Shown here in pieces: positions 5,596-31,006 of a stretch of DNA of 64,000 nt; position 1 is the first letter of the stretch, and each line of letters opens with the position of its first letter. The stretch lies in contig CAYLPP010000004.1 of the NCBI GenBank assembly GCA_964385615.1, forward strand, positions 39,494 through 103,493. The letters are read 5' to 3'. The translations under genes and the position numbers were made by a program. Origin of the DNA: an uncultured bacterium. GTDB lineage: Bacteria; Omnitrophota; Omnitrophia; Omnitrophales; Aquincolibacteriaceae. The notes under the pieces are model-generated. The model made no database searches. It was not told the origin of the DNA and saw only the letters and a list, made by a program, of their open reading frames with translations.

Positions 5596-5600
5596 TCCAA

Positions 5601-6272: not shown

Positions 6273-6397
6273 AAACGGGAATTATCGGGATTTAGAGGGT
6301 CCATTAACACCGTTTTCATGCGGTATTTCATGTTTGGAGTGGTTAAAGATGAATTTAGTCCAAAAGTGTGCGGACTAAGCACTTTTAAAGAGGCTTT

Positions 6398-9533: not shown

Positions 9534-10432
9534 TTTTCCAGAAGAGCTCTTTTAAGAAAACCGCGTGTTTTTTTCAGCGCGGCAACGGCTTTCGGGCGGG
9601 GCCATTTTTTACGGGCCATTAAAATAGCGACTTTCACCTTCTTGCCGGACTGCTTCAGATAAATTTCCGCCCGGTTTTCAGGAACCTGGCCCAAACGGCT
9701 GATCAGGCGCAGCGCGCGCGCCTCCAGTTTTTTGGACCGGGGCTGGAGGTCAACCATCCAGTTCTGGTAAACCTTTCCCAACTGGACCATGGTGCCGACA
9801 GTCAGCATATTCAGTACCAGTTTGGTCGCGGTGCCCGCTTTTAAACGAGTGGAACCACTGATGACTTCGGGGCCGGTTTTGACGGCGATCACGCAGTCAC
9901 ATAAATTTTTAAGCAGGGAGCCGTCCGCGCAGGTGACCAGAATCGCGGATGCGTTTTTTTCTTTCGCGGCTTGAAGCGCACCTTTAACAAAAGGAGTAAC
10001 CCCGCTTGCGGCAATGCCGACTAGAATATCCCCGGATTTCATTTTTTTGCGGAAAATTTCCAGCCCGTCTTCTAATTTATCTTCAGCGCCTTCCTTAGAA
10101 CGAAAAACCGAACTTTTTCCGCCCGCCATAACCGCCTGAATTAATGAGGGCGGGGTGTTAAAAGTCGGAGGACATTCCGCGGCTTCGAGAACGCCGAGAC
10201 GTCCGCTGGTGCCCGCGCCGGCAAAAAAGACGCGCCCGCCGTTTTTGACGGCTTTCACCATAAGTCCGACGCCCCTGGCAATTTGTTTGCGGGCTTGCGC
10301 GACTTTCAGAGGAACGCTCTGATCTTCACGGCTGATCAGTGTCAGGATCTTTTCTGTGGAAAGGGTGTCGATAGCGCGGGTGCGCGGGTTGGCCTGTTCG
10401 GTCAGCAATTTTCCGTAATTTACTTTTTTCAT
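9530..10432 (-). CDS. murQ: N-acetylmuramic acid 6-phosphate etherase. The start was chosen at MKKVNYG; the tabulated ORF extends to 10450.
   Basis: SIS-domain motifs (FFAGAGTSGRLGVLEAAECPPTF, GSTRLKAGTATKLVLNMLT) align with E. coli MurQ from memory. Confidence 0.85.
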   Translation of the reverse strand: MKKVNYGKLLTEQANPRTRAIDTLSTEKILTLISREDQSVPLKVAQARKQIARGVGLMVKAVKNGGRVFFAGAGTSGRLGVLEAAECPPTFNTPPSLIQAVMAGGKSSVFRSKEGAEDKLEDGLEIFRKKMKSGDILVGIAASGVTPFVKGALQAAKEKNASAILVTCADGSLLKNLCDCVIAVKTGPEVISGSTRLKAGTATKLVLNMLTVGTMVQLGKVYQNWMVDLQPRSKKLEARALRLISRLGQVPENRAEIYLKQSGKKVKVAILMARKKWPRPKAVAALKKTRGFLKRALLEK

Positions 10433-10453
10433 GCGGGGGCAGAATAGCATATA

Positions 10454-11974: not shown

Positions 11975-13263
11975 ATAAAAAACAGCTGGGTTTCTGGGAC
12001 TCAGTCGCGATTAACGTGGGGATTGTCATTGGCGTCGGTATTTTCCGCACGCCTGGAGAAATTGCCGGCTATGTGGATTCCACTCCGCTGATTCTGCTGA
12101 CCTGGGCGCTAGGCGGTTTGGTCGCAATGGTGGGCGCGCTTTGCTACGCGGAGCTGGCCGCGTGCTACCCTCAAACCGGCGGAACCTACGTTTACTTAAG
12201 GGAAGCTTACGGCCGGCCTTTCGGGTTTCTTTTCGGCTGGGTGGAATTCGCGGTGATGCGCCCGGGGTCGATCGCGGGGGTTGCTTATATTTTGACGAAT
12301 TACCTGGGGAATTTTGTTCCCGCCGCGGCTTCGCATGAAAAACTTTTCGCCATCCTAATGATTCTTTTCTTTACGGTTCTCAATATCCGCGGGCTTCACG
12401 TGGGGAGCGGAGTGCAGAATATTCTAACGGTTCTTAAAACTGCGTCCATTGTTCTAATGACGGGAATTATTTTTTGGAAGCTTGGGCTTCCGTCAGCCGG
12501 AGGGCCTGTTTTTTCGAGCGTGACCGGAAAAAATCTTATGGGTATCGCACCCGCGCTGATTCCGGTCATGTGGACGTACGGCGGCTGGCATCAGAGCACT
12601 TTTATCGGCGGAGAATTCAGGGACACCAAACGGGATTTGCCCCGATCTTTGGTTATGGGGGCCTTGATCGTCATGGCGCTTTACCTCATGATCAACGCGG
12701 CTTACCTGCGGGTTATGACGCCTGCTGAAACCGCGGGAACGAAAGCGATCGCTTCGGAAATTTTTTCCAGAATTTTTGGAACGCCTGGCGGAACTGCCGT
12801 GACGATTGCTGTTTTAATTTCCGCCGCGGGGGCGCTCAATTCCACGATTCTGACGGGAGGGCACATTCCCTTCGCGGTGGCGGGGGATTATCCCAAGCTT
12901 TCCTGGGTCGCGAAAATTGACGCGAAATTTCATACCCCCCTTCAATCTCTGGCCGTTAACGGGATTTGGGCTTCCGCTCTGGTTCTTTGGGGGAATTTTG
13001 ACCAGCTTCTTTTTTTCTTCGCGTTCGCGAACTGGCTCTTTTTTACGATGGCCGGGATTAGTGTTTTTGTTTTGAGAAAACGCGATCCCGAAAAAGTTAA
13101 AAAATCCATGCCGGGTTACCCCTGGGTCCCCGTGATTTTTATTCTATCTTCAGCGGTTCTTTGCCTGATCACCATCCGTACCGCGCCCTTTGAAAGTCTC
13201 TTCGGCGCCGGTTTAATGCTGTTGGGCTTACCGGTTTATGCTTTATTCAGGAATAGGGAATAG
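11971..13263 (+). CDS. APC-superfamily amino acid/polyamine permease
   Basis: About 12 TM segments with APC-like N-terminal motifs (VAINVGIVIGVGIFRTPGE, GGLVAMVGALCYAELAA). Its ATG overlaps the nagZ TGA (ATGA). Confidence 0.8.
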   Translation: MNKKQLGFWDSVAINVGIVIGVGIFRTPGEIAGYVDSTPLILLTWALGGLVAMVGALCYAELAACYPQTGGTYVYLREAYGRPFGFLFGWVEFAVMRPGSIAGVAYILTNYLGNFVPAAASHEKLFAILMILFFTVLNIRGLHVGSGVQNILTVLKTASIVLMTGIIFWKLGLPSAGGPVFSSVTGKNLMGIAPALIPVMWTYGGWHQSTFIGGEFRDTKRDLPRSLVMGALIVMALYLMINAAYLRVMTPAETAGTKAIASEIFSRIFGTPGGTAVTIAVLISAAGALNSTILTGGHIPFAVAGDYPKLSWVAKIDAKFHTPLQSLAVNGIWASALVLWGNFDQLLFFFAFANWLFFTMAGISVFVLRKRDPEKVKKSMPGYPWVPVIFILSSAVLCLITIRTAPFESLFGAGLMLLGLPVYALFRNRE

Positions 13264-13447: not shown

Positions 13448-16400
13448 ATGCCTCGATTTTTAAGAGCCGCCGCGTTTACGGTTCTTCCTCTATTTATATG
13501 GAGTCAGATTAGCTGGGCCAACCCGCTTTTGGCGCAGTCCGGGGGAGAAGTGCGCCTGGAGACTCCGCAGATATCTGATTTTTCAATTCCGGAAAATCTG
13601 GGGAAAATACAGTTTGAGCATCCAGGATCCGGTCCTGCCATCATTCATATTCAAACGGCCCACGGAAATTATGGCGCAGAACAAAAAATAAGAGACCTGC
13701 TGGAGTATTTAAAAAAACGTTACGGCTTCAAACTTCTCTTAGTCGAAGGAACCGCTTCAAAACTTGAACCGGAACGCTTGAGTTTTTTTGGAAAAGAGAA
13801 ATCGCTGAGCCTTGAGACGGCTGAAAAATTGACTCGTGAGGCCCTCATGAAAGGTTCTGAGCTTTTTTTGATGGAAGAACCCGGCATGGAAGCTTACGGC
13901 ATTGAAAACCGGGAAGCGTATGTATCCAATGGTGAAGCGTTTCGGGCGGTGCTTACGGAACAAAAGGCTTCCGGGAAATTCCTCAGCGGGATGGATGAGC
14001 AGATTAACCGGTTATTGGCGGTTTTTACAGAGTCGTCTTTCCGCGGTTTTTTGTCCGAAATGCAGCGTTTTGAATCCGGGCAGGGCTCGCTCGCGGACTG
14101 GCTGGGATATCTTAAAAGTGTTACCGCAAAAAATTCAGGTTTAAACCTTGAAGACCCGGCTAATCAATTTGACTGGCCGATGCTGACCCGCTTCTTTAAA
14201 CTACAGGAACTTGAAAAGAAATATCATTCCGGCTCTTTCCGCGAGGAGCTTCCCGGCTTCCTGGCGCGGCTCCAGGGAATAAGTCCGGAATTATCCTCTC
14301 AGGCTGAAAAGTTATTTTCCGCGGAAAATATGCGGGTCCATCTGCCGTATCCTCAGACCGGTGAATTATTTGAGGCTATCGCGCGTGTTTTGCCTGAAGA
14401 CTTCAGCATTGACGCTTACCCGAATGTGAAAATCCGTGCGGCTTTTTTGATCCTCCAAAGTGAATTAAGCGCGGAAATGCTCATGAGAGAAACCGAAAAG
14501 CTTTCGGAGCTTGCTTCGGACGGGCTTGCCCGGACGGAAGATCAGAGGAAGATCTATGGGTTTTACCGGGACTATCTTTTGCTGACGAAACTTTTCGCAC
14601 TGAATGTCACGCCTGAGGAATACGGCTTAATTTTAAAACGCCGTGAAGCGCTGAACCCGGAAGCTTTGGCCGAAGAATTCCGGAGGCTGAACTCGGGAGG
14701 GCGTGTCCGTGATTTGAAGTTCGAACATTTGGCTGAAATATGTTCGCTATTTGAAAAATCGCTCGAATTTTATAAAGGGGCTAAAGAGCGTGACGCTTTA
14801 ATGATTCAGGGGGTTGAGCGGAGGTTAAAGGAAACCGGAGCGGACAAGGCAGTGGTGATTACCGGCGGGTTTCACGCGGAACCGTTTCAGGATTATTTTT
14901 CTTCTCATGGGTTTAATTATGCGCGGATCATGCCGGAGATTACAGTTTTAGGCGGAAGGGATGCCTATGTGGAAGCCGTTCTGCAGAGCCAGCCCCGCCT
15001 TTTTTTCGCATCGACCCGTGAAGTGCCGTTTGCTTTCGCTTCACCGGAAGCTCTTTTGGAAATGGATAGAAATGCTTATCTGGGCTCGCTCGACCGGCTG
15101 GTACGGGCTGAGCTTGAAACGGCTGAAGATTCCGGGGACTTAAAAAATATTGAGAAAGCGAATTCAAACGGCCGTTTATTCGGGATTCAATATCAAGCCG
15201 GTTCAAAAAATGTGACTGTGAGCGCGGATGGAAAAAAATTCACGGTTCCGGTTTCACTTCGTCTGAATTTAAATCAGACTCGGCTCCTTCAGCGTTCCGA
15301 GTTGAGGGTGGACGTTGAGAAACTTAAAAACGCCGCGACTAAAGATGAAGCGCTGCGTGATCTTTTGAGCACTCTGGTAAGCGGAAGCGATGACAGGCAG
15401 CGTTTGTCGGCCTATCGGATCCTCACGGGAGTTTTTAGACGGGGCTCGCATAGAGATGAGATTTATCAGCATTTTACGGATAATGACCGCCGAAAAATCC
15501 GGGAGCTGATGTTCCACGCTTTTTTTGATCCCGATCACCGGATCCGTCAAGACCTGGGGTACAACCTTTACGGAAGCCTCAAAGATTTGGCTTCAAATGA
15601 TGATCTTATGGATTATCTTGCCAGGGCCGACGTTTATCAGCCGGGGCATTTAAATGAAGCCGAGGAATTTGTTTCCTGGGAAGTTTCCGGTCAGGAACCT
15701 CGTTTGAGCCCTGAGGAAACTTACAGCCTGGCCACGCAGAAATACATGGGTAAAGAAGCCGTTCTTTTCGCGATTTCCCGGCGCATCCATTTTTCTCACG
15801 GGAATCCTGACGAGCCGTACTTTCAGGGAAAAATACAGGAGGCCGACGGGGATTTCCGGGCCGCTTTGAAGTGGTTTAATCCGGAAATTCTTCAAGACTC
15901 AAAATTCCCGATCGCGCGAGCGATCCACGCGGCTCTTTTTGAATTTGCGCGTGAGGAAATGGTCGAGAATCATATTCCCGCTTCCTTTCTTATTCCGGAT
16001 CAAAAGACGCATTCGGTGAAAAACTGGAGGCTTGAAATGATCCGGTGCGTGATGGGAGATGCCTACACTCCGTGGATTTCGGCGATGGTGAGTCTCTATG
16101 CTTCGTTTATCGCAGAGCATCAAGCGGTTTTAGGGCGCGAAAGTATTGGACTCAGCTTTCAGGAAATCCGGAATCGCAAGACCGGTACGGAAAAACCGAT
16201 TTTGTATGGACCGGTTAAGGCAGTTCTGGCGGGCGATGAGAATAAATTGGCGTATATCGCCGCCCGGAGTCTAGAGCATAAGAGTTCCAGCGGGGCCGAC
16301 ATCCGGGAAGGGTTGACTGTTCTGGAAGGATACCGCGAACTGCTCGCGGAAAATGGTTTTGACTTCGGCGACGCGATTCGAGTTTCAATCCGAAAAATGG

Positions 16401-19400
16401 GCACGCTTTCTAATTTAATAAACCGGAATTTCCTGAGCGCTTCGCGAGATGAAATAATGGGACCTCTTTTGGAGATTCAAGAAGATTTGAGAAGACTTTT
16501 AGAGCTCCTGACGGCGGAGGAACCGAAAATTCGGGGACGCAGTGAGGAGCTGATGCGGGGCAGTGACAAAAGACAGGGTGCCCGGCTTCGGAAAAATTTC
16601 GAAGTTCTCACGGAGCAAACCCGGCTTCTTAAGGTGTATCTTGATGACCGGATTGCGTTCGCGAACAAAAGCTCTGAACCCGCGCGTACGGAAGTGGTGC
16701 CGGTTCTGGGCTTAATTCAGTCACGGCATGGTCAGAAACTGGTTATTGAGACTTCAGATCTTTCCGGGGTTTCCGCCGCTATCTCCCGCGTCCGGCTTTT
16801 CTCGATTCTCAATAATCTTGTTTCGAACGCAATTGAGGCCCAGGCGGAGTATTCTCAGGAACCGGTAACTGTTCGAGTTTCCTTGGAAAAAGAGGGGATT
16901 CTTTTTGAAGTTCAAGATCACGGACCTGGTTTTCCTTCGGATTATTTTCAGCCCGGTGAAAATGGAATCCGCTTATTTGATCTGGATGAGAGGAAAGGGC
17001 TGGGATTGGCTGAAGTCTGGGCGACTACGGCCCTGGCTTCAGGGTTTCTGGATGTCATTTCCAAAAGCGGGAAAGGCTCCACAATCGGCGTGACAATTCC
17101 TCGCTCAGAGGTACGCACTCAAACATCCGAAGCCCCAGTCATTCAGGATTTAATCATTCCCGGTGTTTCGGCTAAAACACTTGGGGTTTCACCTTTGAGC
17201 CGGATTAAGGTGTGGAGGCGTAAACCGGTGCGGGGGAATCCTTCTCTGGTCCGGAGTAATGACAATCTTTTAGTGGTTGAAGCAAAAATGGCGAATGAAC
17301 TGAAAGCTTTAGACCAGATATGGGCGCGTATCGTGCTGCGTCTTGATAATCCGTCCGCGGAAGAAGTGGAAGGGATGCGGGTTATGGCGGAGGTCATTGA
17401 ACGCGTAAAAGTCCGTATCCGGCTTGAACAGAGGAAAAGCCAGGAAATTTTACGTGAGATTATGGGGTTTGAAGGAAGCGGGGGTATTTCAAACCCTAAA
17501 GCCCGCGAAATCGTTGAGAAAGAACTTCTTCCTGACTTGGAAGATCGTGATGAATTTCTTTTTTTGAGCGCTGCCGAAGAAGTCAAAGGCGTTTCGCTTG
17601 AAAAAGCCCGCACCGCGATTACCCGGCGGTATCAGACCTTGGCCATGATTAAGCTCTACCAAATTATTTTAAATCTGCCTTATGGGTTCCACACAGAAAG
17701 CGATGACGTGATTCAAATGCAAAGAAACCTGGCCGCATCCCGTAAGGATGAACTGGAAGCTGAAGTCCCGAGGATTTTAAGCGCGATTGAAAAAGGATCC
17801 AGCCCTCGTGCCGCCGTTCAGGAATCCATCGAACGTATCAAGATCAGAATCCGGGATCTTGACCGGGAGATTAAAGAGACTCCCAGCAGTGAGGACCGGA
17901 CGTCACTGAAAACACTGCGGACAATCGCGGTGGAACAGATCGGGTACCTTGAAAAAGTGGGAACCTCTTACGATGTTTACGAATATCTTTACGAGCCTCG
18001 TGATCCGGAGGATGTTAGAAAAGAAAAAATTAGCAACGAAACAAAACGTCATGTTCAGCTTGCCCGGACGGCGGGCGATGAATTCCCGGAGCTTAAACGG
18101 CGGGGATGGTCTCTGAAGACGATTTGGTTTTATGTGTTTTCATCAACAGCCTGGGTTTTTGGCCTGCATTTTTGGGCTGTTCGGTTTTTCCGTAAGAATC
18201 CTGATTTTTTTCTGAATTGGTTTAACGCTTACATCCGCAACGAGATTTCCAAAGGCCGGCCGGTTCAATACGCCGCTGCCAAGTTTTTCTATGAAAACCG
18301 TGAGCTGGCCGCGAAAAGGGATTCGCTGTTCTGGCCTTTTTTGATGCGTTATTACGATCTGGCTGAATATGGTCACGCCCGCAGAGAATCTGGTGACCCG
18401 GTCATCGTTTTTGCCGAAGAGATTCACGACGAATCGGATTATAACCGCCTGATGGCGAGTTCCCGGGGTCACGGGAAAATCGCGGCGATTGTCGCGCCTA
18501 AAATGGAAGGGGAAATGAGAATCCCTCACTGGTTTATTTACGCTAAGAAGGAAAATATTCTCGTTCTGACTTCTCTGGATTTAAGAAAAGCGGGGATCCG
18601 GCTGGAGGATCTTGAAAAGGCTGATGGGGAAGAGTACGAGGGGATGGTGGACGCGAAACGGGGGGTTCTGGTGATTAATCCCTCCGTGGAAACTCAGCTG
18701 GAGTGGCAGAGTAAGGGAGAAACTTACGAGCTCCAGGATAAATATTATTGGAGCCGCGCGCGTAAGCAGACCATTTTTAATCTGACTCAGATTGAGTACC
18801 TCGCGGATGAAACCAGCCTTGAAGCCATTGAATGGATGGATGGTCAACCCTCCCTGCTTTACCGCTCCGGCGCGAGCGGGGTTGGTTTATTCCGTCTCGA
18901 AGAACTTTTGACCGCTCAGATGGACCGCGCGGGTATTGAGCGCGATCCGGCGCGTATTCAGGCCGCGGGGTCGGAAATTCTTGGTTATCCGGAATTTGAA
19001 AATGGCCAGGTTTTTACTATCAGACTTAATGATGTGAGCGTGGACAAAAGACCTCAATTCCTTGTGGATGGCGCTAAAGGTTTGCGCGGATGGGATATGG
19101 ATGAAATTATCCGGACGATGTCCGGAGCCCGTTTTTACTTGAACCGGGAAAAGTATCCGGAATTTTATGAGTTCGGGAAAATGCAGTTAAAAGCCATTTT
19201 CGCGGCTCATTTACGCAAAGGTATCCGGCGTTCAGGGATTAAGATTTTGATTTCTGATGTCCGGAATGCTTCAGAAATCGAGGCGCTTGAAGCTTTGCTT
19301 TTGGACGCGAAAAAAGAATTTATCGAAGAGGTTATCATCGGTACTTCTGCGGACCTTTCCGCGAGACTTCACTACGAGGATATGACCCAGCTTCTCTCGA

Positions 19401-22400
19401 CACTCAATCCGGATGAAATCAGCGATGCGATTGAAAGAATCCCGATTGGTTACATGTATGAAGATACCACGGCGATTGAAAATGAACGGGAAGCCATGAC
19501 CCGAAAAGTAAAGGAATTGTCAAAAACCCATTGGCGCGAAAGGTTTTTTGGAATTGGTTCCAATGATTTGAGCAAGTCGATTAATAAAGACCGCATGGGC
19601 GGAACGATGGCGCTGGATGAGTTGAGTCCTCTCCTCGTTCGGGATATCTGGCTCGCCGCCAAATCGGCTCAAAGAGAAAATATTCCGGTTAACCTGGAAG
19701 GGGAGTTGGGCGGGTCCAAACCGATGGCTTTTATTCTTCTGGCTTTGCAGGAACTCTCTGGAGGGGTGAGGATCACTCCAGTCGCCGCGACCGCGCAAAT
19801 TCCTGAATTGAAGGAGCTGGTTCGTGAGCATGTAGAGATAAGTGATTTTACGGAACCCTTGCGGGGGCAAAAATATTCCTTGGCAGAGCTTTTAGAGAAG
19901 ATCAGGGCTCCTTCTTTTGACTTGAGTCAGTTCCCGCTGGAGGACTGGAAATCAATTTTAAATCAGCTGGTTTCTACCGTAGAGGCCAGAATTTTCGGAA
20001 GCGATGATTTTAATCATTTTGCCCAGCAGATTTCCGACGGAGTTGCTCCGGAAGACGCGGAAATTCAAGCTCCGAAAGAAGCTGGATATTCCCGTGTGGA
20101 AAGTTTGGATGACGGTAGAATCCGGGAGGATAGATTATACGCGGTCGGCGCCTATGCTTTTCATACAACGCCCAACCAAAAAATTATGGTATGGCTCGCG
20201 GCGCATAGAAATGTGCGCGCGGTTTACGGTAAAGGGGACGCCGACCCAATAACCGAGCTTTATGAGTTTAATTTTATCAATATTCTCACGGTCAGAATTC
20301 TCCGCAAGCAGAAAATGTTTTTTAGGGTTGAAGGCCCTGAAGCCGAGGTGAGGGAATTTTATGAATTAATCGATACGATGGTGGAATATGACGGCATGAC
20401 CAGCACATTTTCGCCCGCGTCCGGACGCTCTGAATTAAGAGTGAAGGCCGCTCCTCAGCTTCCCTGGGATGAAATTGAAAAAGCCCAGCAGGATTTTCGC
20501 CTAAGGCTCGCGGATCCGTCTTTAAAAGACGCGGTATTGCGGGAAATTTGGAATAACGTTCTTAACGGTCCGGATGAGCTCACCAGGGCCGCGAGCTATT
20601 ACATTCTCGCGGACTTCTTTACCCAGCCTGATTTATTTGCGGGAATTATCGGGAACAAGGAAAGGCTTTTTACGGGGCGGGTGCTCTTAAGTTCTTATTT
20701 CGACCCTTCAAAAAATATTCGAATGCCTTTAGCCAGCAACAACGCCGCGGAAGAGGTTTATGAGGCGGTCCCGGATAAAGCTTTGCTTGAACTGCTGAAT
20801 CAGACGGACGCTTATCCTTTTTTGAGAGTTAACGGCAAAAATGAATTGGAAACGATTAGCACGGGGGCTGACCCCCGCCTGGGTCCCGGTGCCGTGTTCA
20901 GTCCGGAGCTTCGGGCTTATTTCGCGAAAGAAGCGATTTTGTTCACTCTGTACCGCCGTTTAGCTAACAGTTCCAGCGGAACCCCGAAATTCATTCAATC
21001 TGAAATCGCGGCTGCACAGGCGGACCTTGATAAAGCTCAAACGGCTCATGATCCTTCTATTCTGGAAAATTCAAAATCTCCGATTTTAAGGGCCGTAGGC
21101 GCCGTGCTTTTTGAGTACCTGCGGGACGAGTACGTTGAGAATGGGGTTAAAAATGGACAAAGACTGATCGGCGAAAGTAATTGGGGGATCGCGGGCCGTT
21201 GGCGGTTAAATATGATTCAGGAAATTCTTGGGCCCGCTAACAAGGCCGCCGTGAGAGAAATAGCATGGGCCTATCTGGAATTTATTCGCCAGCACGAAGC
21301 TCATCTGGGGCCCGAGACCAGAGGTTTTGGCAGGGGCCGTTTAAGCCGCTCTGAATTGAGAAATGAAGAGCAGGGTAAATCGTTTGTTGAATTTCAGCGA
21401 TTCAGCCGGCTCCCGCGGATTGAGTCCGCGAAACTGCCGTTAGGATATTATATTCAATCCTCCGGACTCAATATTGCCGTGGTGGATGATCACCATAAAG
21501 TGGTGCCGATTTGGCGGGAAGCCCACGCACGGGGAATTATTCCGAAAAATTCTTCGCTGGTGCATATTGACGCGCACACGGATGATCTCTTTGTGCCGGA
21601 CAGTCTTAACGGTCTTGTTCCGCTCCCCTCGGGGATTTTAGACGGGGCTGTTTTGGCGGACTATTTGGAGCAAGTTAAACGGGGGATCGCGAAATATTAC
21701 CGGATTGGAACTTTTATCGCGCCGGAAGTTTTGGCCGGTCTAATTGATCCTGAAAAATGGTTCTTTATTAACTCGTTATCCAATCTTAGAAGCGGTCCGG
21801 GAAGATTTCAATTTCAATGGCGCGGAATTGGAGGTATCGAGATGCTTACGGCGGCTTATCCTTTCGCGGGTACTTTGGATCGAATTTTTAAGAATAATCA
21901 GCCGGATATCGTGAATTTCGACATTGATGTAATGGGAACGGAGGTTCACGTTTTCCGGAGCCTCTTCCGCGTTAAACTCTTCCGGTTTTTGGGAGATCAA
22001 AAAGCAGATTCAGCCCAGGAAATCCTCGATTTGCTTTCAAGAGATCCGGAACTGAAAGCGAAAGGTTTTAATTTAGCCGGCGGAAGATATTCAGAAATCG
22101 TGGAAGCCTATTTCCGCTCTGACAAGAAAACGCCGGTTTTGATTGAGCTGGAAAAGAGTTTGGCAGTGGAAACCGTTTTAGCTCAATGGTTTCCGGTTTT
22201 GCTTCCGCTTCTCTCTAGAGCTAAGCTGATTACGATTGCGACCAGCCCGGGCTATATCGACCAGGATGACGCTTTAAGAATTGTTAACCGTCTTCTTCCC
22301 GAATTAGAACAGTATAAGATTAGCGGAGTTTTGACCGTGTTTCCAGAAAGGGAGAGAGAGGAAGGCGCGGGAGAACTTCCTTTTGAGCAAAGAGCCCGCG

Positions 22401-23467: not shown

Positions 23468-23692
23468 TCTAATGCTTCAAAGCATCTTCTAGCAGAAACT
23501 AACACTGCTAAAAATCGTGAAGTCCATTCAGTCATTCCCAGACTTCATTTGATTTCACCCTTCAGGTTAAATCAGAACTTATTTCAACTGCAAATAGTCC
23601 AGCATAACCCCTTGAAGATAAAAGTTTTTTAATGTAATCTTGCGTAACTTTTTAAAGAAATTGTAAATAAATTTAATTGAAAGAGGCTCTCA

Positions 23693-26600
23693 ATGAAAAA
23701 ACGGGACGGCAGACTCGTAAGGAAAACAAGCGCGGCCATTACGGCCGCGTGTTTTATCGCCCAACAGATTTTTGCACCCGCTGTTTCTTCTGCCTCCGAA
23801 GTTCAGGAAAGCAGTCTCCGAGTTCCCTCAATTGAAATTCCCGCTGAAATAGGTTCCCTTGAAACCTCAGGGATTTTAGAAGATCAAAAGCCCATGATTA
23901 TTCAGGTTCAGGACGCTCACGGAAATTATGACGCTCAGAAAAATATTCAAAAAATTCTCCAGCATCTTACCGCCTATGAAGGCGTCGACCTTGTTTTGCT
24001 CGAAGGCGGAAAAGGCCCGCTTCATCCCGAAATCCTGAATTTTTTACCAAGACGTCCTGATTTGAATCTGGAAATCGCCGACCGTCTGGCTCAGCAATCT
24101 GAACTGAGCGGAGCGGAGATTTTTCTTCTAGACCGGTATTTGGCGGGGAAGACTCTTGCCGCATTTGGGATTGAAAACGCTCCGGCTTACCGGGAGAACC
24201 GTGAAGCTTTTCAAAAAGTTCTGCGCGCCCGGGAGCAAAGCGGAAATTTCTTAAAAGATATGGAAATGCAGATTGACCGCCTGACGGCGCCTCATGTGAA
24301 TCCTCAGCTCAAAAATTTTCTGCGCAGTTATGAAGCTTATGAATCACGGCAGATGGATTTGACGGTATGGCTCCGCCAGCTTGAGGAGCTTTCACGCAAG
24401 CACTTGGGCTTGGACCTGGATTTAGCCGGAAGTCAGAAAGACTGGCCGATGCTCACCCGGTATTCCCGCCTGCGTAAACTCGAACCCAAACTTGATAAAA
24501 CGCGTGTTGAAAACGACAAAACGGCGATGCTTCAAAAACTTAGGTCGCTCAATGTTTCTAAAGCGGTGATTGAGGCTTTTGACAATGCCGTGAATATGGC
24601 CCCGGATAACGGTGTTCAGGCTTCTCAAATTGTGAAAGCTGTTGAGAGTGTGATGGAAGCGGTTCCTTCCGATTTTTCTTTTGAACCCTATGGGTTCCTG
24701 AAAGCTTGGATTCAGTTTGAAGTTTTTCAGCGTGAGCTTAATGGAGAAGCTTTATTCGCGGAGGTCAGCAAACTGGAAGATCTTCTCTCAAATCAGCTGG
24801 CCAGAACCGAAACCGAGAAAAAACTTCTGGCCCTCTTTAAAGATTACCGTGCTCTAAACAAACTTTTCGCTCTCGAACTTACCCGGGAAGATTATCAGAA
24901 TATCCAGCGTTCTGAGGACACGATGACGCCTTCGGCCATCGCCGGACGGTTTTCAGCGGTCAATAAAAACAAGCAGGTCCGCGACACGCAGTTTATTCAT
25001 TTAAAAGAACTCGACGCTCTTTATTCGCTCGCGCTTAATTTTTACCGCGGAGCGCTTGACCGCGATCATTTGATGGCGGACAACATTTTGGAAACTATGC
25101 AGGCGCAGGGGAAGCGCCGGGCGGTTGTTGTGACCGGCGGGTTTCATTCAGAAGGAATGCAGGAATACTTTCAATCCAAGGGTTTTTCTTACGCGCGGAT
25201 CAGCCCGCGAATTCAGGAGCTGGGTGACAACAAAGCTTATATCCGGGCAATGCTGGATGAAGATGTTGAAATTAAAAAATCGCAGGTCGCGGATATCCTG
25301 GTGGAACAATTCGGGGAAGTTCAGCTGGAGCTGGGGAGCGCCAGCCACTTAACCCGCAAGGACGCAGTCATTTACCGGGTCATGCGGGATGTCGTTGAAC
25401 ACGCGGGCGCGCGCTCAGAAATGCGCGGACGGCGTGATTGGATTTACGGTATCGGGCTTGTGACCGCGATCGGTTTAGCGGCTTATGCCGCGTTTAGACC
25501 CTTGCCTGTCAATCCGCCGGCTCAGCAGGATGTGCCTGCAAAAGTCGCGGAGCTAGAACCTAAACCGGTTCAGCAGGAGAAGAAGGTTGAAGAAAAAAAG
25601 CCCGCTCCGATTCCTGAAGTGGTGCCGCTGCCTCAGCCTGAAAAGAAAGCTCCAATTGTTAAAATAGATGAGCCTGTGATTGATAAGGCCGAAACGCTCC
25701 GTGTTTGGGGTAAGCGGGAAGTGCCTAAAATTTCTCCTGAAAAACTCGAGGCTCTTGTCACTTCAGATTTAAACGCGGAACAGATCCGGTATTTGCTGAA
25801 ATACGATAAGCGGTCGAAACAGCTTGAGTCCGCGGGAGCGGGAAAAAACACGGTTTGGAGTATTGAAGCCGGTGTCCGTCATATTACAGAAGCTAAGCTG
25901 AATAAGGCGGAGAAGGCGGAGTTTGAAGCGACGAAAGGCGCGATTGAAGAGTTTTTGAAAGAACTGAAAGAAGACGGCGCTTTTAAAGAAGGGCAGACCG
26001 CTCTGGATCTTTATTACTTTTTCTTCCGCCCGCTTTTTGTGGTGCAGGACCGTCATGGAGCTGCCGCCGCGAAGTGGGTGGTAGAAATGCAGATTGCTTA
26101 CTTTACGGTTAAGAATAATTTTGAGATCAACCTGAAAGGGTTAACTGAAAAATCTTTGAGCGCGACTTATATCCGCACCATTGAGGACTATCTGAATGCT
26201 GATGAGTGGAAAGCTAACGGCGGGGAACGGTTAAAAATCGCGTTCGCGCTTTCTATTTTATACGCGCAGATGGATAATTATAAACAGGTGATTTGGCGTA
26301 ATCACGACTGGTCAAAATTCAAAAGGCTTGAGCTTCCGGCTGAACTCGAACTCTACCGCTTTTACGGCGAAAAAGGGCTCGGCAAAGATGCGTTGGAACG
26401 CATGGAGCTCGAACTTAAAGCTGAAATCCGCGGCCCCAGACCCCTGGGAAAAAATAATGCCTGGAACAACCGCCCGAATCTCCCCCAACGTTATGTCGGC
26501 CTTTACGAAGAAGTTTATTCCAGGACCTGGTATTACTCGACCATGCACCGTGAGCGTTTTTACCGGCCCGGAGATTTCCGCCTCGGAGCGACTCCGAATC

Positions 26601-29600
26601 CCTGGTTCCCGACGCATACGCTGATGTACTTCCATATTTCCAGAATGGATTGGGTCCAGAAACGCGCTTCGGATGTAACGGGTGTGAGCCGTGAACCCTA
26701 TTTCATCGCGCCGGTGGCGATCCAGCTGCCCAGCGACAACATCCGCAAAAACAAATTTCCGATTATTATTCCAGCACGCCCGGACGCTGTCTGGGGCGCG
26801 ATGGGGCTCGGCGATAGAAGCAGTCAGCGGGCTGAAGATATTTTCAGTTTTCATCTTTCCAATCCTTCCGCTTGGAAGCCGGGTGAAAAAGACGAGCTTC
26901 AATATCTCGATCAGGTTTTTGACGCGGCAAAAATGAAAGATTTCAGTAAGCAGTTCCGCGCATTATGGGACAGCGGAAAAGTCCGGAAATTGTATGTCCA
27001 GGATTACGGAGAATTTCTGGTGGATGATTTCCTCAAGAAGTTCATTGACCAGAATTATTTTGACGTTTTCAACGGTCAGCTGAAAGGAAACGAAAAGTAT
27101 TTTGATGATCTCGCGAAGGCTTTGAGGACGCAATATCCGAAACTTCCTTACGATTATCAGGTTTATCTTCAAATTCCTCTCCTTCGCTATGAGGCCGGGA
27201 AAAATCTCAAGCTGGATGATGATTATATGGCGTATCTCCGCGCGGATCTTTACCAGTCCGCGGCTCAGCTTGCCCGGGATATCTATGTCAACAACACGCA
27301 GGCGCTGATCGGCTCAGCTTACCGGCAGGGAATTTATGACACTCCGGGCGTCTTAGCGTATGTTGAACGGCACATTATTTTCCGGCCCATGGTTGAAAAG
27401 CTTCTAGGCCGTGAGCTTGTTCTCTCAGACCCTCACTCGAACGATTCGGGGCGTCTGTCCGCGTTCGTTAATGAAATTTACAAAAGAGATATTGATCCGG
27501 ACATCTGGTATCTGATTACCCGCTATACGCTTGAAGAATCCACGCAAAAAAGTGCGCTGGAATTTTACAACGCCGTGATGGGTACTGAATTAACTTCTTT
27601 GGGGCTTAACGATAAAGACGAAAAACTCGCGGCGGTCCGCTTCGGGGTTCTGCTTTCGTACGCGGCCGAGGACATTCTTCACCCGGGCCGGATGGAGAAA
27701 ATAAAAACGTTCTTAAAAACACCGGCGATGCGCCGTAAAGCTGTCGAGTTTGCCATCCGCACGCGCGGGGCATTTAGAAGTGAGCCTGATCTTACGGGAG
27801 ATGACTTAAAACGCGCCGCTGACGCGCTTGAAAAAGATCTTTTGGAGCAGAAAAACTCAGAAGCCCTTGTGCGCTACACCGGCTACTTGATCGGGCAGGC
27901 CCGGACCGCTGTTTTGAAAGACGTTCTGGATAGCGATGAAAATTTTAAGGAGTGGGTGGAATTGACGGACGCTTTGATTAAGGTTCTTGATCCGCGAGCG
28001 CCTAAAAAACGTTCCGAAGCGCGGGCGGTTTCCCGGGCGCCGGAATCTTTCGAGGCTGATTTTATCGAAGCTTTTTTAAATTCAAAGTTAATGGATTTAA
28101 CGGATCGTGAGAGGGTTGTTTTTACGAGACGGTTCGCCGAAAAGAAAAAGGTGAATGAAATCGCGGCGGAATTGAAAATTGCCGGGCCTGCTGTTTCCAA
28201 GGTTATCGCGAGTCTCCAGCTGAAAACGGATTATTTCTCGGTGAATATTTACGGCAAGCCTTTGCTCGATCCCCGCAAGCTCAATGAGCTCCCCGTGGAA
28301 AGGGTCGGATACCTTGATCAAAAAACCCTGACAGCCTGGAAAGGCAGGGGGATTAATAATTTGAAGGACTTGGTGACACGAATGCCTGAACTTCTGGATG
28401 ATCCCCAGAAAACAGGACCGGCGCTTAAAATAGTTTCCCAATACCTGATCGCTTTGGGAGTGAATCTTAATCTGGGATTGATTATGGATCTTACCCCTGA
28501 AGCTTCGTCCGCGCTGGAAGCTATGACTCTTCAGGAATATTTGGTTCAGGAAAACGCATACCAACTGCTTTTGAGAGTTCAAGCGGTTCAAGACCCTCTG
28601 TTTTTACCGCAAAAGAAACGTGAGGAAAGACCGGGTAAATTAAGACAGCTTGGAGTGAATACGGTCGGCGACCTTCTTAAGGTCGGGCTTGATGCGTTCA
28701 GACAGGCGGGATTTACCTCTTCCGACATTAAGTTAATCGCGGCGGTTTTAAAAGTTCAGCCGGCAGGAACAAGCGCCCGCTCAGAACTCCGCTCGGAAGA
28801 AACGAAACCGGAAGCCCAAGGCAAAGCTGTACCGGTACGGTCCGAAGTTCTTCAAAGAGTCCGGAGTCTCAAGACTGATGAGGTGGAAAAGTTAACGACG
28901 GAAGATCTCGCTGGAATCGTTCGTGAACTTGTGGAGAGCGGAATTTTAAAGGATTACGAAGGGCTTCAAGTGCTGTTAACGTTGTTTTCTGCGGGCCCGG
29001 CGACTGGGAAAGGCGCTTTGATGAGCGCGACTTTTCTGGCTGAAGAAGAAGGAGAAATCGCCCCCTATCAAGATCTGGTGGATAAATTCGTTCTTTTTCA
29101 CACCCGCGCTCCGCGAGTGGATAAAAAAGGAAGATCGGAAAAGAACGGAAGAGCTTACTATTTCGTGAAAACGGAAGATTTAAAACAGTTGGCGGCGGAA
29201 CTTGGCGAAGATGTTCTGGTCGTTCGGGAAATCAACCGGGAAGTTCAGGCGCTCGCGCGTAAAAATTTCACACTGCCTCATGTCGAAGTCGGGGAGGTCA
29301 CCGGTTCTGGACAGCTTCAGCCGGGCGATCTTGTCGTGAGCTTCGATGCTTCCCAGGGGCTTTTAGTCATTCAGCGCGGGGAATTCACGATTCCTCTGAC
29401 GGGGGTGACCATTCCTGAAGGCTCTGCGGGGTATTTTTTAAATGGGGATAAAATTGAAAAAGTTGAAGGGCCGGCGGTCTATGTAAGCCGGCAGATTAAA
29501 GGGATTGAAGAAACGTTTAAGAGCGGAAAGCTGACCATTCTTGAAGGCGGTTATGAATGGTTCAAATGGGTTAAAGAGCATTATCCGGAAGTTCTGACCA

Positions 29601-30937
29601 TGTTTTTATCGCCTTTCCGCGAACCCGAATTCGCCGTGCGTGCCCAGAATTTGGCATGGATCCGGGAAAACTTTTCAACCCCTGAAGATATTTACGCGGC
29701 TTTTGAAGCGATGACGGATTTGATTAAAGCCAATAAAGGTGAAATTTCCATTCCTTCGTCAACGGGCTATCAGGCGGCTATAAAAGCCAAGGTTGATTCC
29801 AAACCTGCGATTCCGCCTGTGCTGGCCGAAAACACCGCGGTCATTCTTAATGACGCTGATTTTATCGCTGAACTCAATCAGCTTCGGAGCCGTTTTGGAA
29901 AGCCTTCGCTGAAGCCGGAAGATTACGATTTGGCCCGGGCCCTGGCCTTTGAAGTTCAGAGGAGGCTTTTCGGCCGTGATGGGGTGAAGGCGTTTCGTGT
30001 CGGCGGGGAAAGAAGCAATCCTTACGACCGGATTTTAGAAGGAACCTTGCAGATTCTGGACCGGAATTCCGATTACGGCGCTGAAAACGTTCTTCCGAAT
30101 CCTTTTGGGTACACGGAAGACGAGAAAAGTAAAAACATTAATGAGTTGAGCGATCAGTTCGCCCGGCGTGTTTTCCTGCACGTTGTGGAAGGTCTTCGCC
30201 GGTCAGAGATCAGAAATAATCCGGCGGATATTACCGCGGTATCCCTGCTTGAAGGCAAACCGGGGACGCCTTCAGAATTATTAGTTCAGGCTCCGGTTGG
30301 GATTTCACCGCGGAAGACTTTGCGCGCGGTCCAAATCGTTACTGAGGTTTTTGATGGAATTGCGCCTACGGCTGGAATTCTCGGCATTTCGGCGGAAGTT
30401 CTGATTGACCGGATATCTGCCGGTGAAAGCGGAAAGGTTTCACCGTGGGTGCCGTTTACCGATGAACAAAGAAAACAGCTGAGCGGAGTGCTGGGAATTC
30501 GCGGGCATGGAACTCAAGCAAATGTTCTGATTACTGAACCCGTCGCTGGTATTGATAATGGCCTGCTCGCTTTACTCGGTGAAGCTGGAGAAGGCGTTCT
30601 GGTTATTTTGGTGGGCGCGGATGATCAGCAGAAGCGTATCGTCGCTGAAATGAATAAAGAATTAAAAGCCGTGAAGCGTCAAGAAATCCGGCTGGCTAAA
30701 GATACGGTCGAAGCCCGGAAGATCGCGGATCAATACACTAAGGGAAAAACCGTGATGCGGGCGTATGTCGACGTTTCAATGGTAGGCCGGTACGGTACGG
30801 CGCTGCGTAAACAGCTTGCGGATGTTATCCCGATGACTCCCAGAATGTACGAGAATATGAAGCAGGGGTTTGCCGCGGCGGCAGCCCGCCTGACGGCTTT
30901 CTTCGAAATCAGCAAACGGATCAAATCCGCGGCATAA
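23693..30937 (+). CDS. Giant multidomain protein (2414 aa), called giant 2 below, a paralog of giant 1. Its parts are a signal peptide, a TraB/GumN/Tiki-like N-domain, a TM helix with a Pro/Lys-rich linker, a sigma70-r4-like HTH, two RNAP alpha-CTD-like HhH domains, and the shared C-terminal domain.
   Basis: A single 7.2-kb ORF preceded by an AGAGG ribosome-binding site. Its N- and C-terminal regions align clearly to those of the upstream giant. Confidence 0.85.
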   Translation: MKKRDGRLVRKTSAAITAACFIAQQIFAPAVSSASEVQESSLRVPSIEIPAEIGSLETSGILEDQKPMIIQVQDAHGNYDAQKNIQKILQHLTAYEGVDLVLLEGGKGPLHPEILNFLPRRPDLNLEIADRLAQQSELSGAEIFLLDRYLAGKTLAAFGIENAPAYRENREAFQKVLRAREQSGNFLKDMEMQIDRLTAPHVNPQLKNFLRSYEAYESRQMDLTVWLRQLEELSRKHLGLDLDLAGSQKDWPMLTRYSRLRKLEPKLDKTRVENDKTAMLQKLRSLNVSKAVIEAFDNAVNMAPDNGVQASQIVKAVESVMEAVPSDFSFEPYGFLKAWIQFEVFQRELNGEALFAEVSKLEDLLSNQLARTETEKKLLALFKDYRALNKLFALELTREDYQNIQRSEDTMTPSAIAGRFSAVNKNKQVRDTQFIHLKELDALYSLALNFYRGALDRDHLMADNILETMQAQGKRRAVVVTGGFHSEGMQEYFQSKGFSYARISPRIQELGDNKAYIRAMLDEDVEIKKSQVADILVEQFGEVQLELGSASHLTRKDAVIYRVMRDVVEHAGARSEMRGRRDWIYGIGLVTAIGLAAYAAFRPLPVNPPAQQDVPAKVAELEPKPVQQEKKVEEKKPAPIPEVVPLPQPEKKAPIVKIDEPVIDKAETLRVWGKREVPKISPEKLEALVTSDLNAEQIRYLLKYDKRSKQLESAGAGKNTVWSIEAGVRHITEAKLNKAEKAEFEATKGAIEEFLKELKEDGAFKEGQTALDLYYFFFRPLFVVQDRHGAAAAKWVVEMQIAYFTVKNNFEINLKGLTEKSLSATYIRTIEDYLNADEWKANGGERLKIAFALSILYAQMDNYKQVIWRNHDWSKFKRLELPAELELYRFYGEKGLGKDALERMELELKAEIRGPRPLGKNNAWNNRPNLPQRYVGLYEEVYSRTWYYSTMHRERFYRPGDFRLGATPNPWFPTHTLMYFHISRMDWVQKRASDVTGVSREPYFIAPVAIQLPSDNIRKNKFPIIIPARPDAVWGAMGLGDRSSQRAEDIFSFHLSNPSAWKPGEKDELQYLDQVFDAAKMKDFSKQFRALWDSGKVRKLYVQDYGEFLVDDFLKKFIDQNYFDVFNGQLKGNEKYFDDLAKALRTQYPKLPYDYQVYLQIPLLRYEAGKNLKLDDDYMAYLRADLYQSAAQLARDIYVNNTQALIGSAYRQGIYDTPGVLAYVERHIIFRPMVEKLLGRELVLSDPHSNDSGRLSAFVNEIYKRDIDPDIWYLITRYTLEESTQKSALEFYNAVMGTELTSLGLNDKDEKLAAVRFGVLLSYAAEDILHPGRMEKIKTFLKTPAMRRKAVEFAIRTRGAFRSEPDLTGDDLKRAADALEKDLLEQKNSEALVRYTGYLIGQARTAVLKDVLDSDENFKEWVELTDALIKVLDPRAPKKRSEARAVSRAPESFEADFIEAFLNSKLMDLTDRERVVFTRRFAEKKKVNEIAAELKIAGPAVSKVIASLQLKTDYFSVNIYGKPLLDPRKLNELPVERVGYLDQKTLTAWKGRGINNLKDLVTRMPELLDDPQKTGPALKIVSQYLIALGVNLNLGLIMDLTPEASSALEAMTLQEYLVQENAYQLLLRVQAVQDPLFLPQKKREERPGKLRQLGVNTVGDLLKVGLDAFRQAGFTSSDIKLIAAVLKVQPAGTSARSELRSEETKPEAQGKAVPVRSEVLQRVRSLKTDEVEKLTTEDLAGIVRELVESGILKDYEGLQVLLTLFSAGPATGKGALMSATFLAEEEGEIAPYQDLVDKFVLFHTRAPRVDKKGRSEKNGRAYYFVKTEDLKQLAAELGEDVLVVREINREVQALARKNFTLPHVEVGEVTGSGQLQPGDLVVSFDASQGLLVIQRGEFTIPLTGVTIPEGSAGYFLNGDKIEKVEGPAVYVSRQIKGIEETFKSGKLTILEGGYEWFKWVKEHYPEVLTMFLSPFREPEFAVRAQNLAWIRENFSTPEDIYAAFEAMTDLIKANKGEISIPSSTGYQAAIKAKVDSKPAIPPVLAENTAVILNDADFIAELNQLRSRFGKPSLKPEDYDLARALAFEVQRRLFGRDGVKAFRVGGERSNPYDRILEGTLQILDRNSDYGAENVLPNPFGYTEDEKSKNINELSDQFARRVFLHVVEGLRRSEIRNNPADITAVSLLEGKPGTPSELLVQAPVGISPRKTLRAVQIVTEVFDGIAPTAGILGISAEVLIDRISAGESGKVSPWVPFTDEQRKQLSGVLGIRGHGTQANVLITEPVAGIDNGLLALLGEAGEGVLVILVGADDQQKRIVAEMNKELKAVKRQEIRLAKDTVEARKIADQYTKGKTVMRAYVDVSMVGRYGTALRKQLADVIPMTPRMYENMKQGFAAAAARLTAFFEISKRIKSAA

Positions 30938-30965: not shown

Positions 30966-31006
30966 AACCCGTTTCCCGCCCTCGGGCGGGGAGCGGGTTA
31001 TTTTTT
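30966..31006 (+). terminator. Rho-independent terminator after giant 2
   Basis: AACCCGtttCCCGCCCtcgGGGCGGGgagCGGGTT forms a nested GC-rich hairpin, followed by ATTTTTT. Confidence 0.65.

Follow-up and report, generated by a model that had tools for sequence, protein, structure and literature searches.

What kind of genes are the two giants that lie side by side in an uncultured Omnitrophota bacterium, and do they form a system of their own? The stretch analysed here, a 64-kb window of contig CAYLPP010000004.1, contains two adjacent, co-oriented open reading frames (ORFs) of 3339 and 2414 amino acids (aa), here called giant 1 (G1) and giant 2 (G2). A first-pass annotation of the window described them as paralogues with shared termini and unrelated cores, and proposed that they might act together as a paired system. 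Comparison with their relatives makes it very likely that G1 and G2 are instead neighbours within a modular family of giants, found here in Omnitrophota only, with an architecture of head, punctuation and tail. The punctuation is the pentapeptide RSExR, which recurs at the borders of the cassettes between the two ends. It might also be the place at which the giants are cut into separate products, and this possibility is weighed below against other explanations.

A shared frame and a recurrent pentapeptide

Both ORFs were found exactly where they had been annotated, in the same orientation and the same reading frame (Table 1). The signal peptides read on both have a classical look by eye, with a basic n-region, a hydrophobic core and SWA/N or SSA/S sites. 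The shared N-terminal domain of ~500 aa was borne out by a significant BLASTP alignment of G1 aa 31-512 with G2 aa 33-521 (37% identity, E 4e-89). The shared C-terminal domain, annotated at ~170 aa, measures 180 aa and aligns without gaps between G1 aa 3160-3339 and G2 aa 2235-2414 (59% identity, E 4e-56). Every other high-scoring segment pair (HSP) between the two proteins has an E value of at least 0.19; because no further HSP lies below this value, the middles are unrelated, as had been stated. Within the C-domain 106 of 180 residues are identical; 102 of these could be encoded by synonymous codons, and the codon agrees at only 39 of them (38%). At the nucleotide level this domain is 62% identical, and nowhere do the two genes match exactly over more than 14 nt. 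This codon divergence supports an old duplication or exchange under purifying selection, in line with the old duplication that had been annotated. The absence of a terminator between the giants was also confirmed, as a consensus scan found no terminator-like site in the 225-nt spacer.

The head domain was used to collect relatives from species-representative genomes. At least 204 loci were found, of which 80 were retrieved; motif counts were made on 75 family ORFs of the loci L001-L080. The lengths of these relatives are limited by a 10-kb flank, and most full lengths extend beyond it. All 80 retrieved loci come from metagenome-assembled genomes (MAGs) labelled Omnitrophota or 'uncultured bacterium', with several loci per genome and at least five in one MAG. 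In protein databases, the head domain matched Omnitrophota proteins only. At 75 loci the head opens an ORF that mostly runs past the flank and is therefore longer than 3900 aa. Head identity to G1 across the family set is 31-56%. Tandem arrangement is not restricted to the window: at least seven loci have a co-oriented giant whose end is under 500 nt away from the head gene, on its upstream side.

The neighbourhood of the pair recurs as well. In L001 the window genes at 4221-13260 are repeated, with the permease followed by a G1 orthologue, and in L055, which belongs to the same MAG, the end of a giant with the same C-domain is followed by a G2 orthologue. L082 carries a G1 orthologue, an IS30-like gene, a G2 orthologue (P0014) and BipA, and L081 carries the end of a giant and then P0016, another orthologue of G2. 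In four assemblies (the window, L055, L081 and L082) a G1-type and a G2-type gene are still neighbours. The IS30-like gene (HTH_38, L082:7601-8593) lies on the minus strand, opposite to the giants, and the G1 and G2 orthologues of L082 need not be co-transcribed.

G1 and G2 together contain nine copies of RSExR, whereas 2000 residue shuffles average 0.16 copies and never exceed 3. The motif is absent from all other genes in the 64-kb window. In the 75 relatives, 335 copies were counted where 4.3 were expected from composition, which corresponds to an ~80-fold enrichment. Its density is 1.76 per 1000 aa in giants and 0.24 in other ORFs of the same loci, and the copies in those other ORFs are mostly within adjacent giants. 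In an unbiased count of gapped 5-mers, RSE.R was the top pattern in most giants examined, with the lineage variants RAE.R (L068, L022) and LSD.R (L023). The motif has V, L, A, M or I as its fourth residue, with small residues on its N-terminal side and first small, then acidic ones on its C-terminal side. The median distance from one copy to the next is 191 aa, the size of a domain, and in the C-domain model the motif region has a predicted local distance difference test (pLDDT) score below 50. A literature search for a prior description under 'RSELR' gave only unrelated software names.

The codons of the motif are biased at synonymous sites. The first Arg is encoded by CGY in 85% of copies (controls 46-49%) and by AGR in 2%, and the Ser by TCN in 94% (controls 61-68%); the last Arg and the Glu follow background codon usage. 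The TCN bias can be explained by purifying selection that freezes the serine codon class. The pattern CGY-TCN-GAR suggests a nucleotide- or translation-level constraint besides the peptide. A DNA-level repeat was ruled out as the source of the motif, since the codons differ between copies and the flanks carry no information.

The motif coincides with the borders of cassettes. G1 contains an internal duplication (repeat A; aa 616-~916 versus aa 2327-2634, 31% identity, E 5e-37), both copies of which begin exactly at a motif, and its HATPase_c domain ends exactly at one. The alignment of G2 aa 1696-2170 with aa 743-1239 of P0019 spans exactly from motif to motif. G1 aa 1219-2367 is 57% identical to the L082 orthologue in an alignment that begins right at the motif in both proteins, and the kinase-like stretch of G1 (aa ~913-1218) is absent from this orthologue. 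The cassette that opens at G1 aa 1219 is also present in L033, at another position (41.6% identity over 927 aa), and the syntenic orthologue in L001 departs from G1 right past the first motif. Family-wide, HSPs outside the head start at a median of 19.5 aa from a motif, compared with 105 aa for random placement. The G2-type proteins illustrate the same grammar. P0016 has the order head, motif, transmembrane segment, module X, motif and C-domain. In P0014 and G2 the C-domain is preceded by two or three additional, unrelated cassettes, and a motif stands at the start of every one; the helix-turn-helix (HTH) and P-loop cassettes of G2 are absent in P0016, and P0014 carries WD40 and other cassettes instead.

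In relatives the motif brackets complete enzymes. A triosephosphate isomerase (TIM) in L002 (L002:3271-10332, aa 1181-1441; 253 bits, with the usual conserved TIM motifs) starts 7 aa after RAARSEAR and ends 4 aa before the next motif. A phosphoglucose isomerase (PGI) in L044 (L044:9833-21655, aa 2082-2582; 758 bits) ends 8 aa before a motif. Further cassette enzymes are adenylate kinase, iPGM, glutamate dehydrogenase (GDH), a 6PGL-type isomerase, 2-hydroxyacid dehydrogenase, PGM and an ACP-like domain. Cassette-bearing giants with central-metabolism enzymes, all with head and signal peptide, were found in L002, L044, L025, L030, L058 and L061. The motif fell inside 0 of 15 Pfam stretches, with a rough joint chance of ~10^-5.6.

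Domains of the two giants and their locus

In the AlphaFold model of the G1 head (aa 28-530, pLDDT 81) the alpha/beta core carries a helical insertion of ~300 aa. The core is a parallel beta-sheet flanked by helices, as in the TIKI/Ere/ChaN/TraB fold. The figures listed for this model by relative are 10.6 for Bcr135, 9.5 for Bcr136 and for HopBA1, 9.3 for EreC, 8.6 for TraB, 8.4 for ChaN, 7.2 for PMT and 7.1 for RRSP. The long insertion between core strands is one feature that sets the Omnitrophota head apart within the TIKI/Ere superfamily, whose members range from site-specific endopeptidases (Tiki, RRSP) through esterases (Ere) to non-enzymes (ChaN, PMT). The curated Pfam model for ChaN (Cofac_haem_bdg, PF04187) stays sub-threshold on the G2 head (18.1 bits versus a cut-off of 27.7) and gives no match to G1 at E values up to 10; a distant head homologue, P0034, carries PF04187.

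In the head alignments His72 (in AHG), Glu100 and His476 (in GGFH; G1 numbering) are invariant, and the Glu lies exactly 28 residues past the His in 79 of 79 head sequences. The same 28-residue spacing is found in Bcr135 (His85/Glu113) and RRSP (His3902/Glu3930) (PMC6254334). Because this His-(28)-Glu...His set is intact and shares the spacing of the Bcr135/RRSP catalytic pair, the head is probably an active hydrolase, as judged from alignment and model. The heads do not conserve the fourth RRSP residue, the first Glu of its 2His/2Glu set, and have Thr, Asp, Glu or Ala at this place. In one relative, P0005, the coding sequence of the head is interrupted in frame by insertions at L036:3471-3552, 3936-4007 and 4290-4361. 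They consist of tandem heptamers (GTACGGA)n and their complement (TCCGTAC)n, which form inverted repeats and translate as ...EYGVRSTA...TPYAFRRT...; the same peptide signature occurs in P0008 and P0011. These insertions have the look of a repeat element that forms hairpins and is tolerated in frame.

The C-domain is much rarer than the head. A word-index protein search returned no homologues, and an exhaustive HMMER search of 1.8 billion representatives found the domain in G1, G2 and six other proteins only, always at the extreme C-terminus. An additional copy is present in L055. Scans of metagenome contigs with the C-domain and with module X found nothing. The structural model shows a generic Rossmann-like core and a long terminal helix without a diagnostic motif, and its first 61 residues have a pLDDT below 50. 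Between G2 and its orthologues P0014 and P0016 the C-domain is only 34% identical, compared with 63-66% for module X and 49-52% for the head. In L082 and L081 the domain at the C-terminus of the G1 orthologues is another one (...LATLQASA). As G1 and G2 share 59% identity in this domain and G2 only 34% with its orthologues, though module X is at 63-66%, the sequences suggest that the shared C-domain is probably a motif-bounded cassette that was exchanged or homogenised between neighbours in this lineage. Since synonymous sites are near saturation, such an exchange would have taken place long ago.

More widespread than the domain is the end of the tail. Of the 29 family-type ORFs whose 3' end is complete, 21 close with ...AA or ...SA-COOH after a helix that looks amphipathic by eye; among other ORFs only 1.4% and 1.0% do so. 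A cut on the N-terminal side of the motif, which would leave ...AA ends like that of the tail, was ruled out, because small residues are only mildly enriched at positions -1/-2. A tmRNA was sought for a comparison of its tag with the ...AA tail; none was found in the window or in 60 loci.

Where enzyme modules had been annotated in G1 (GHKL ATPase, Enzyme-I-like and arginase-fold-like), three domains pass their Pfam gathering scores: HATPase_c at aa 1115-1219 (46.2 bits versus 26.4), PEP-utilizers_C at aa 1806-1961 (42.5 versus 22.8) and UPF0489 at aa 2676-2773 (35.7 versus 27), the region of the last giving a weak match to the peptide-arginase model NF052474. The full architecture of Enzyme I of the phosphotransferase system (PTS) is not reached. 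The NCBIfam Enzyme I model TIGR01417 gives a match that reaches aa ~2104 and scores 35.3 bits, far under its cut-off of 341.7, and only PEP-utilizers_C passes a Pfam threshold; aa 1219-1751 have no Pfam match. In the histidine-kinase-like part Pfam finds no HisKA, and NCBIfam histidine-kinase models all remain far under their cut-offs on G1. At the H-box position of this module (window 16300-17100, aa ~975-1219) the sequence reads SRDEIMGPLLEI by eye and contains no His; the module may be a pseudokinase or a non-canonical GHKL ATPase. After the PEP-utilising domain (window 20020-20425, aa ~2190-2326), AFHTTPNQ... and ...FRVEGPEAEVREFYELIDTMVEY have an HPr-like look by eye. No transmembrane segment was found in G1 by the hydropathy criterion used for G2.

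The transcription-factor-like modules annotated in G2, a sigma region 4 and two helix-hairpin-helix (HhH) alpha-subunit C-terminal domains (alpha-CTDs), could not be substantiated. Sigma70_r4 scores 15.7-18.7 bits versus a threshold of 24.1, so that the sigma models PF04545/PF08281 give no significant match. An alpha-CTD (PF03118) is detected in aa 1440-1695 neither by Pfam at E values up to 10 nor by a PDB sequence search, and BLAST shows no similarity of the HTH cassette to the alpha-CTD-bearing homologue P0003. The Pfam matches of G2, to sigma-70 region 4 and ChaN/Tiki, are all sub-threshold. The transmembrane-like segment is conserved in P0014 and P0016. Module X, 63-66% identical between G2 and these two proteins, has no match in Pfam or PDB and belongs to no known family.

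Table 1. Features of the two giants and the sequence between and behind them (window positions; aa numbers refer to the respective protein)
Feature	Position (nt)	Strand	Description	Basis
Giant 1 (G1)	13448..23467	+	3339 aa; signal peptide, head domain, four cargo cassettes, C-domain	ORF list, translation
G1 signal-peptide-like N-terminus	13448..13519	+	MPRFLR-AAAFTVLPLFIWSQISWA/NP	read from sequence by eye
G1 head domain (aa 28-530)	13529..15037	+	TIKI/erythromycin-esterase superfamily fold	
G1 putative catalytic residues	His72 13661-13663; Glu100 13745-13747; His476 14873-14875	+		
Motif RSELR (G1 aa 616)	15293..15307	+		
G1 repeat A, copy 1 (aa 616-~916)	15293..16195	+	no assigned function; starts at motif	
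HATPase_c (GHKL ATPase)	16790..17104	+	end of histidine-kinase-like stretch aa ~975-1219	Pfam
Motif RSEVR (G1 aa 1219)	17102..17116	+	right at HATPase_c end	
G1 cassette aa 1219-2326	17102..20425	+	unannotated aa ~1219-1800, then PEP-utilizers_C (best stretch aa 1806-1961, nt 18863-19330)	
Motif RSELR (G1 aa 2327) and repeat A, copy 2	20426..21346	+		
Motif RSELR (G1 aa 2634) and cassette with UPF0489 (aa 2676-2773)	21347..22801	+		Pfam
Motif RSEIR (G1 aa 3119), linker, shared C-domain (aa 3160-3339, nt 22925-23464)	22802..23464	+	ends ...FFEIRKRISSAA-COOH	
G1-G2 spacer	23468..23692	.	225 nt, AT-rich; AGAGG ribosome-binding site ahead of G2 start	
Giant 2 (G2)	23693..30937	+	2414 aa	ORF list, translation
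G2 signal-peptide-like N-terminus (aa 1-34) and head (aa 35-525)	23693..25267	+	His76, Glu104, His485	
Motif RSEMR (G2 aa 574)	25412..25426	+		
G2 transmembrane-like segment (aa 583-601)	25439..25495	+	WIYGIGLVTAIGLAAYAAF, then Pro/Lys/Glu-rich linker	hydropathy scan
G2 module X (aa ~660-1439)	25670..28009	+	conserved core of G2-type proteins	
Motif RSEAR (G2 aa 1440) and HTH cassette	28010..28777	+	sigma-70 region-4-like, sub-threshold; two HhH-like stretches by eye only	
Motif RSELR (G2 aa 1696) and cassette	28778..30199	+	faint, far sub-threshold guanylate-kinase-like match; cassette common to P0019	
Motif RSEIR (G2 aa 2170), linker, shared C-domain (aa 2235-2414, nt 30395-30934)	30200..30934	+	ends ...FFEISKRIKSAA-COOH	
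Intrinsic-terminator-like hairpin after G2	30966-30999	+	strong; 15-bp stem, 10 G-C pairs, T-run	consensus scan

The window is ordinary chromosome, with RecN, RadC, BipA, an oxoacid:ferredoxin oxidoreductase, CBS-domain proteins, the SUF system and GlpX. Directly upstream of G1 (window 6769-13263) lies a cluster of the muropeptide-recycling type, composed of an SSF transporter, AnmK, a MurQ-like SIS protein, NagZ (GH3) and an amino-acid permease. This cluster is mostly syntenic in L001; in L003 the permease alone is visible, as the contig starts there. The GTG start of the permease at 11905 overlaps NagZ by 70 nt, and because of this overlap the true start is probably further downstream. The 64-kb window as a whole gave no match to tRNA, tmRNA or any Rfam family. 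Among its matches only one is secretion-like: a weak T2SSN stretch, which lies 12.6 kb downstream in an AsmA-like gene. With regard to a defence or phage origin, PADLOC reported nothing and PHROGs matched only the kinase ATPase. No conserved protease or transporter was found beside the family members, only housekeeping synteny (fabF, lpxA-like). One group of head-bearing paralogues lies downstream of fabF-like and lpxA-like (hexapeptide acyltransferase) genes in 12-19 loci (upstream flanks of L009-L079, e.g. L022:5413-9624 and L049:8229-9281). This is a second conserved chromosomal position of the family.

Processing of the giants and its alternatives

A five-residue consensus that is kept family-wide in disordered linkers needs a reader, either an enzyme or a binding partner. 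We favour processing, because the motif is generic to all cassette types and leaves only a few residues between itself and the complete stand-alone enzymes that it flanks. The N-terminus would direct export or membrane insertion of the giant precursor, which would then be cut at the RSExR marks into separate domain-sized products. G1 would give rise to a histidine-kinase-like ATPase, a PEP-utilising enzyme, a UPF0489 hydrolase-fold protein and others; G2 would release module X, an HTH protein and the cassette with the faint guanylate-kinase-like match. The first candidate for the protease would be the head, because it is the only constant enzyme in the family and has endopeptidase relatives (Tiki, RRSP). 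The conserved C-terminal tail would be the signal that is recognised in sorting, in secretion or by a tail-specific protease. As a whole, the family frame combined with polyprotein-like precursors that are processed at the motif comes close to an even call. Taken by itself, the assignment of RSExR as a proteolytic processing site is tentative and a little less likely than not; that the head acts as the processing protease, argued by analogy with its relatives, is unlikely. In the widest version, Omnitrophota would encode much of their enzyme content, TIM, PGI and adenylate kinase included, as true polyproteins. A TIKI-fold head would cut at RSE-hydrophobic-R, the AA/SA tail would mark the last product, cassettes would shuffle at the marks, and G1 and G2 would be small, tractable examples. 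We consider this version rather doubtful.

Several points weigh against processing, which is itself inferred. The three later motifs of G2 sit past the transmembrane segment and are predicted to be cytoplasmic, whereas the head, with its signal peptide, is predicted to be periplasmic. A stop-transfer segment after the head is present in only 4 of 79 relatives; as most relatives are without it, cytoplasm-type enzymes would be exported. Of the proteins that share the fold of the head, ChaN and PMT are not enzymes by way of these residues and Ere proteins are esterases, so that a peptidase is one possibility only. A junction without the motif exists, as repeat A of G1 joins the kinase-like part directly, and a few giants have head and tail and no recurring pentapeptide. 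Finally, the CGY bias of the first Arg is not predicted by a purely peptide-level signal, nor is it explained by the freezing of serine codons.

The reader of the motif could also be a binding partner. The giants would then be uncleaved multi-domain scaffolds that tether enzymes, with RSExR as a hinge between modules or as a docking motif for a chaperone, the export machinery, a Ser kinase or another partner. TIM and PGI, which are obligate oligomers as free proteins, lie only 4-8 aa from the flanking motif, which is tight for a functional tethered array. A hinge, moreover, requires no five-residue consensus across a set of such low head identity, and Arg next to a small residue is typical of protease sites. 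On the other hand, the motif lies in linkers of low predicted order and is missing altogether in some members, and no dedicated protease gene is conserved beside the family. Published topology analyses take giants as membrane-associated single proteins (10.64898/2026.06.07.730766). A scaffold of this kind seems somewhat unlikely to us. Cargo of the cytoplasmic type on a secreted protein would be sensible inside another cell, which leads to multi-effector delivery in the manner of MARTX toxins: head and tail would provide export and translocation into a host or prey, and the cassettes would be effectors released there, with kinase-like, PEP-utilising, HTH/sigma-like and nucleotide-kinase-like modules that manipulate a prokaryotic host. 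Signal peptide, conserved termini and hypervariable central cargo agree with this, and the fold of the head is common to the toxin and effector domains RRSP, PMT and HopBA1. Omnitrophota have been reported as epibiotic predators or parasites, with a giant protein more abundant in attached cells (PMC10066038). However, RTX repeats, a cysteine protease domain and nearby type I secretion genes are missing, and the cargo of relatives is ordinary central metabolism (TIM, PGI, adenylate kinase, GDH), which is odd for effectors. Together with the stop-transfer-like segment in G2 and the position of the locus among housekeeping genes that are syntenic across genomes, this makes delivery distinctly improbable.

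The first-pass annotation had itself speculated on a membrane-anchored pair in which G1, as sensor and enzyme, is coupled to a DNA-targeting G2. The conserved adjacency in four assemblies, the lack of a terminator between the genes and the combination of a transmembrane segment with a weak HTH in G2 would be in keeping with such a system, and the adjacency makes some coupling conceivable. However, its parts do not stay together: orthologues do not retain the kinase-like and HTH cassettes, the IS30-like gene splits the pair in L082, and the termini that suggested a pairing are the frame of at least 204 loci and occur in hundreds of unrelated giants with unconserved cargo. A clear transmembrane segment is present in G2 only, the sigma region 4 lies below threshold and the alpha-CTD modules are unconfirmed. 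This system is very improbable. The chance that the pair is an artefact, either a chimeric assembly, against which the annotation had cautioned, or fused or pseudogenised genes read as one ORF, is next to negligible. The frames are uninterrupted over 10 kb (G1) and 7.2 kb (G2), and both proteins have full-length entries (P0013, P0012) in a library of 15 billion proteins. Because the gene order recurs in independent assemblies (L001, L055, L082 and L081), along with the orthologous architecture, an assembly artefact is very unlikely.

If polyprotein-like processing is true, the giants would be one of the few instances in which a cellular organism encodes housekeeping enzymes as polyproteins, and the motif would provide an annotation rule that splits proteins of 10,000-150,000 residues into real units. 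If processing is refuted, the motif still marks cassette borders and recombination between giant genes. The grammar makes the question of giant-ORF processing directly testable, as G1, G2 and P0016 (1.65 thousand aa) are small enough to be expressed.

Comparison with known systems

Picornaviruses and flaviviruses encode polyproteins, and the gingipain-adhesin polyproteins of Porphyromonas are cut after Arg or Lys. Like these, the giants combine many units per ORF with a short basic-then-small consensus at the junctions and a candidate protease in the chain. They differ in that their cleavage is only proposed, in that they are cellular and chromosomal, and in the rapid turnover of cassettes between orthologues. 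A second likeness is to polymorphic toxins, in which short demarcation motifs such as VENN in CdiA and PxxxxDPxGL in Rhs proteins set off the variable part. In both cases short peptides border a frame and swappable modules, and exchange takes place at the border; the giants, however, have many borders per protein and neither immunity genes nor toxin domains. MARTX toxins likewise have a conserved terminal frame, strain-variable central modules and unstructured linkers, and are cut by a protease within the chain. Their effector RRSP even shares the superfamily fold of the head (PMC6254334). In contrast to MARTX toxins, G1 and G2 contain no RTX or glycine-rich repeats and no C80 protease according to Pfam and NCBIfam, and no type I secretion genes are among the genes of the window; they have a Sec signal peptide instead and, across the family, enzyme cargo of the housekeeping type.

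The closest comparison is with the giant ORFs of the phylum itself, which are a recognised trait of Omnitrophota (PMC10066038). The first-pass annotation had not recognised the architecture as any described system. This was too strong, since the named relatives are all Omnitrophota MAGs and multi-enzyme giant ORFs of this phylum had already been described. According to two preprints, such giants carry HATPase_c, PEP/pyruvate-dikinase-type, NUDIX, TIM, PGI and PGM domains (bioRxiv 10.1101/2023.11.21.568195; 10.64898/2026.06.07.730766). West-Roberts et al. (2023) set a threshold of at least 30,000 aa for 'Archaeovorin'-type giants (10.1101/2023.11.21.568195), and the 2026 preprint defines a 'multi-enzyme metabolic' class of at least 10,000 aa (10.64898/2026.06.07.730766). 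According to the published studies, the functions of the giants are poorly understood, it is undecided whether they act as one chain or are cut, and the cleavage points are stated to be unknown. Their searchable text contains no mention of the junction motif, the linker, a polyprotein model, a TIKI/ChaN/TraB head or the conserved tail. The grammar of head, punctuation and tail was not found in the literature searched, and a prior description elsewhere is possible.

The Archaeovorin-type giants resemble G1 and G2 in several respects. They are Omnitrophota proteins with an N-terminal signal peptide followed by a Pfam-free region and tiled cytoplasm-type enzymes, their sequence is poorly conserved outside domains, and cleavage is suspected. 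G1 and G2 differ from them in that they are 10-40 times shorter than the defined sizes, have 0-1 transmembrane segments, and are without the flanking type II/IV secretion-pilus locus or the downstream pilZ genes of those giants. Because they fail the size criteria and miss the secretion-locus context, G1 and G2 are not members by definition; they are small relatives of the giant-ORF phenomenon. Set beside these systems, the pair described by the first-pass annotation is real but less singular than it seemed, and its value lies in the family-wide grammar that two compact members expose.

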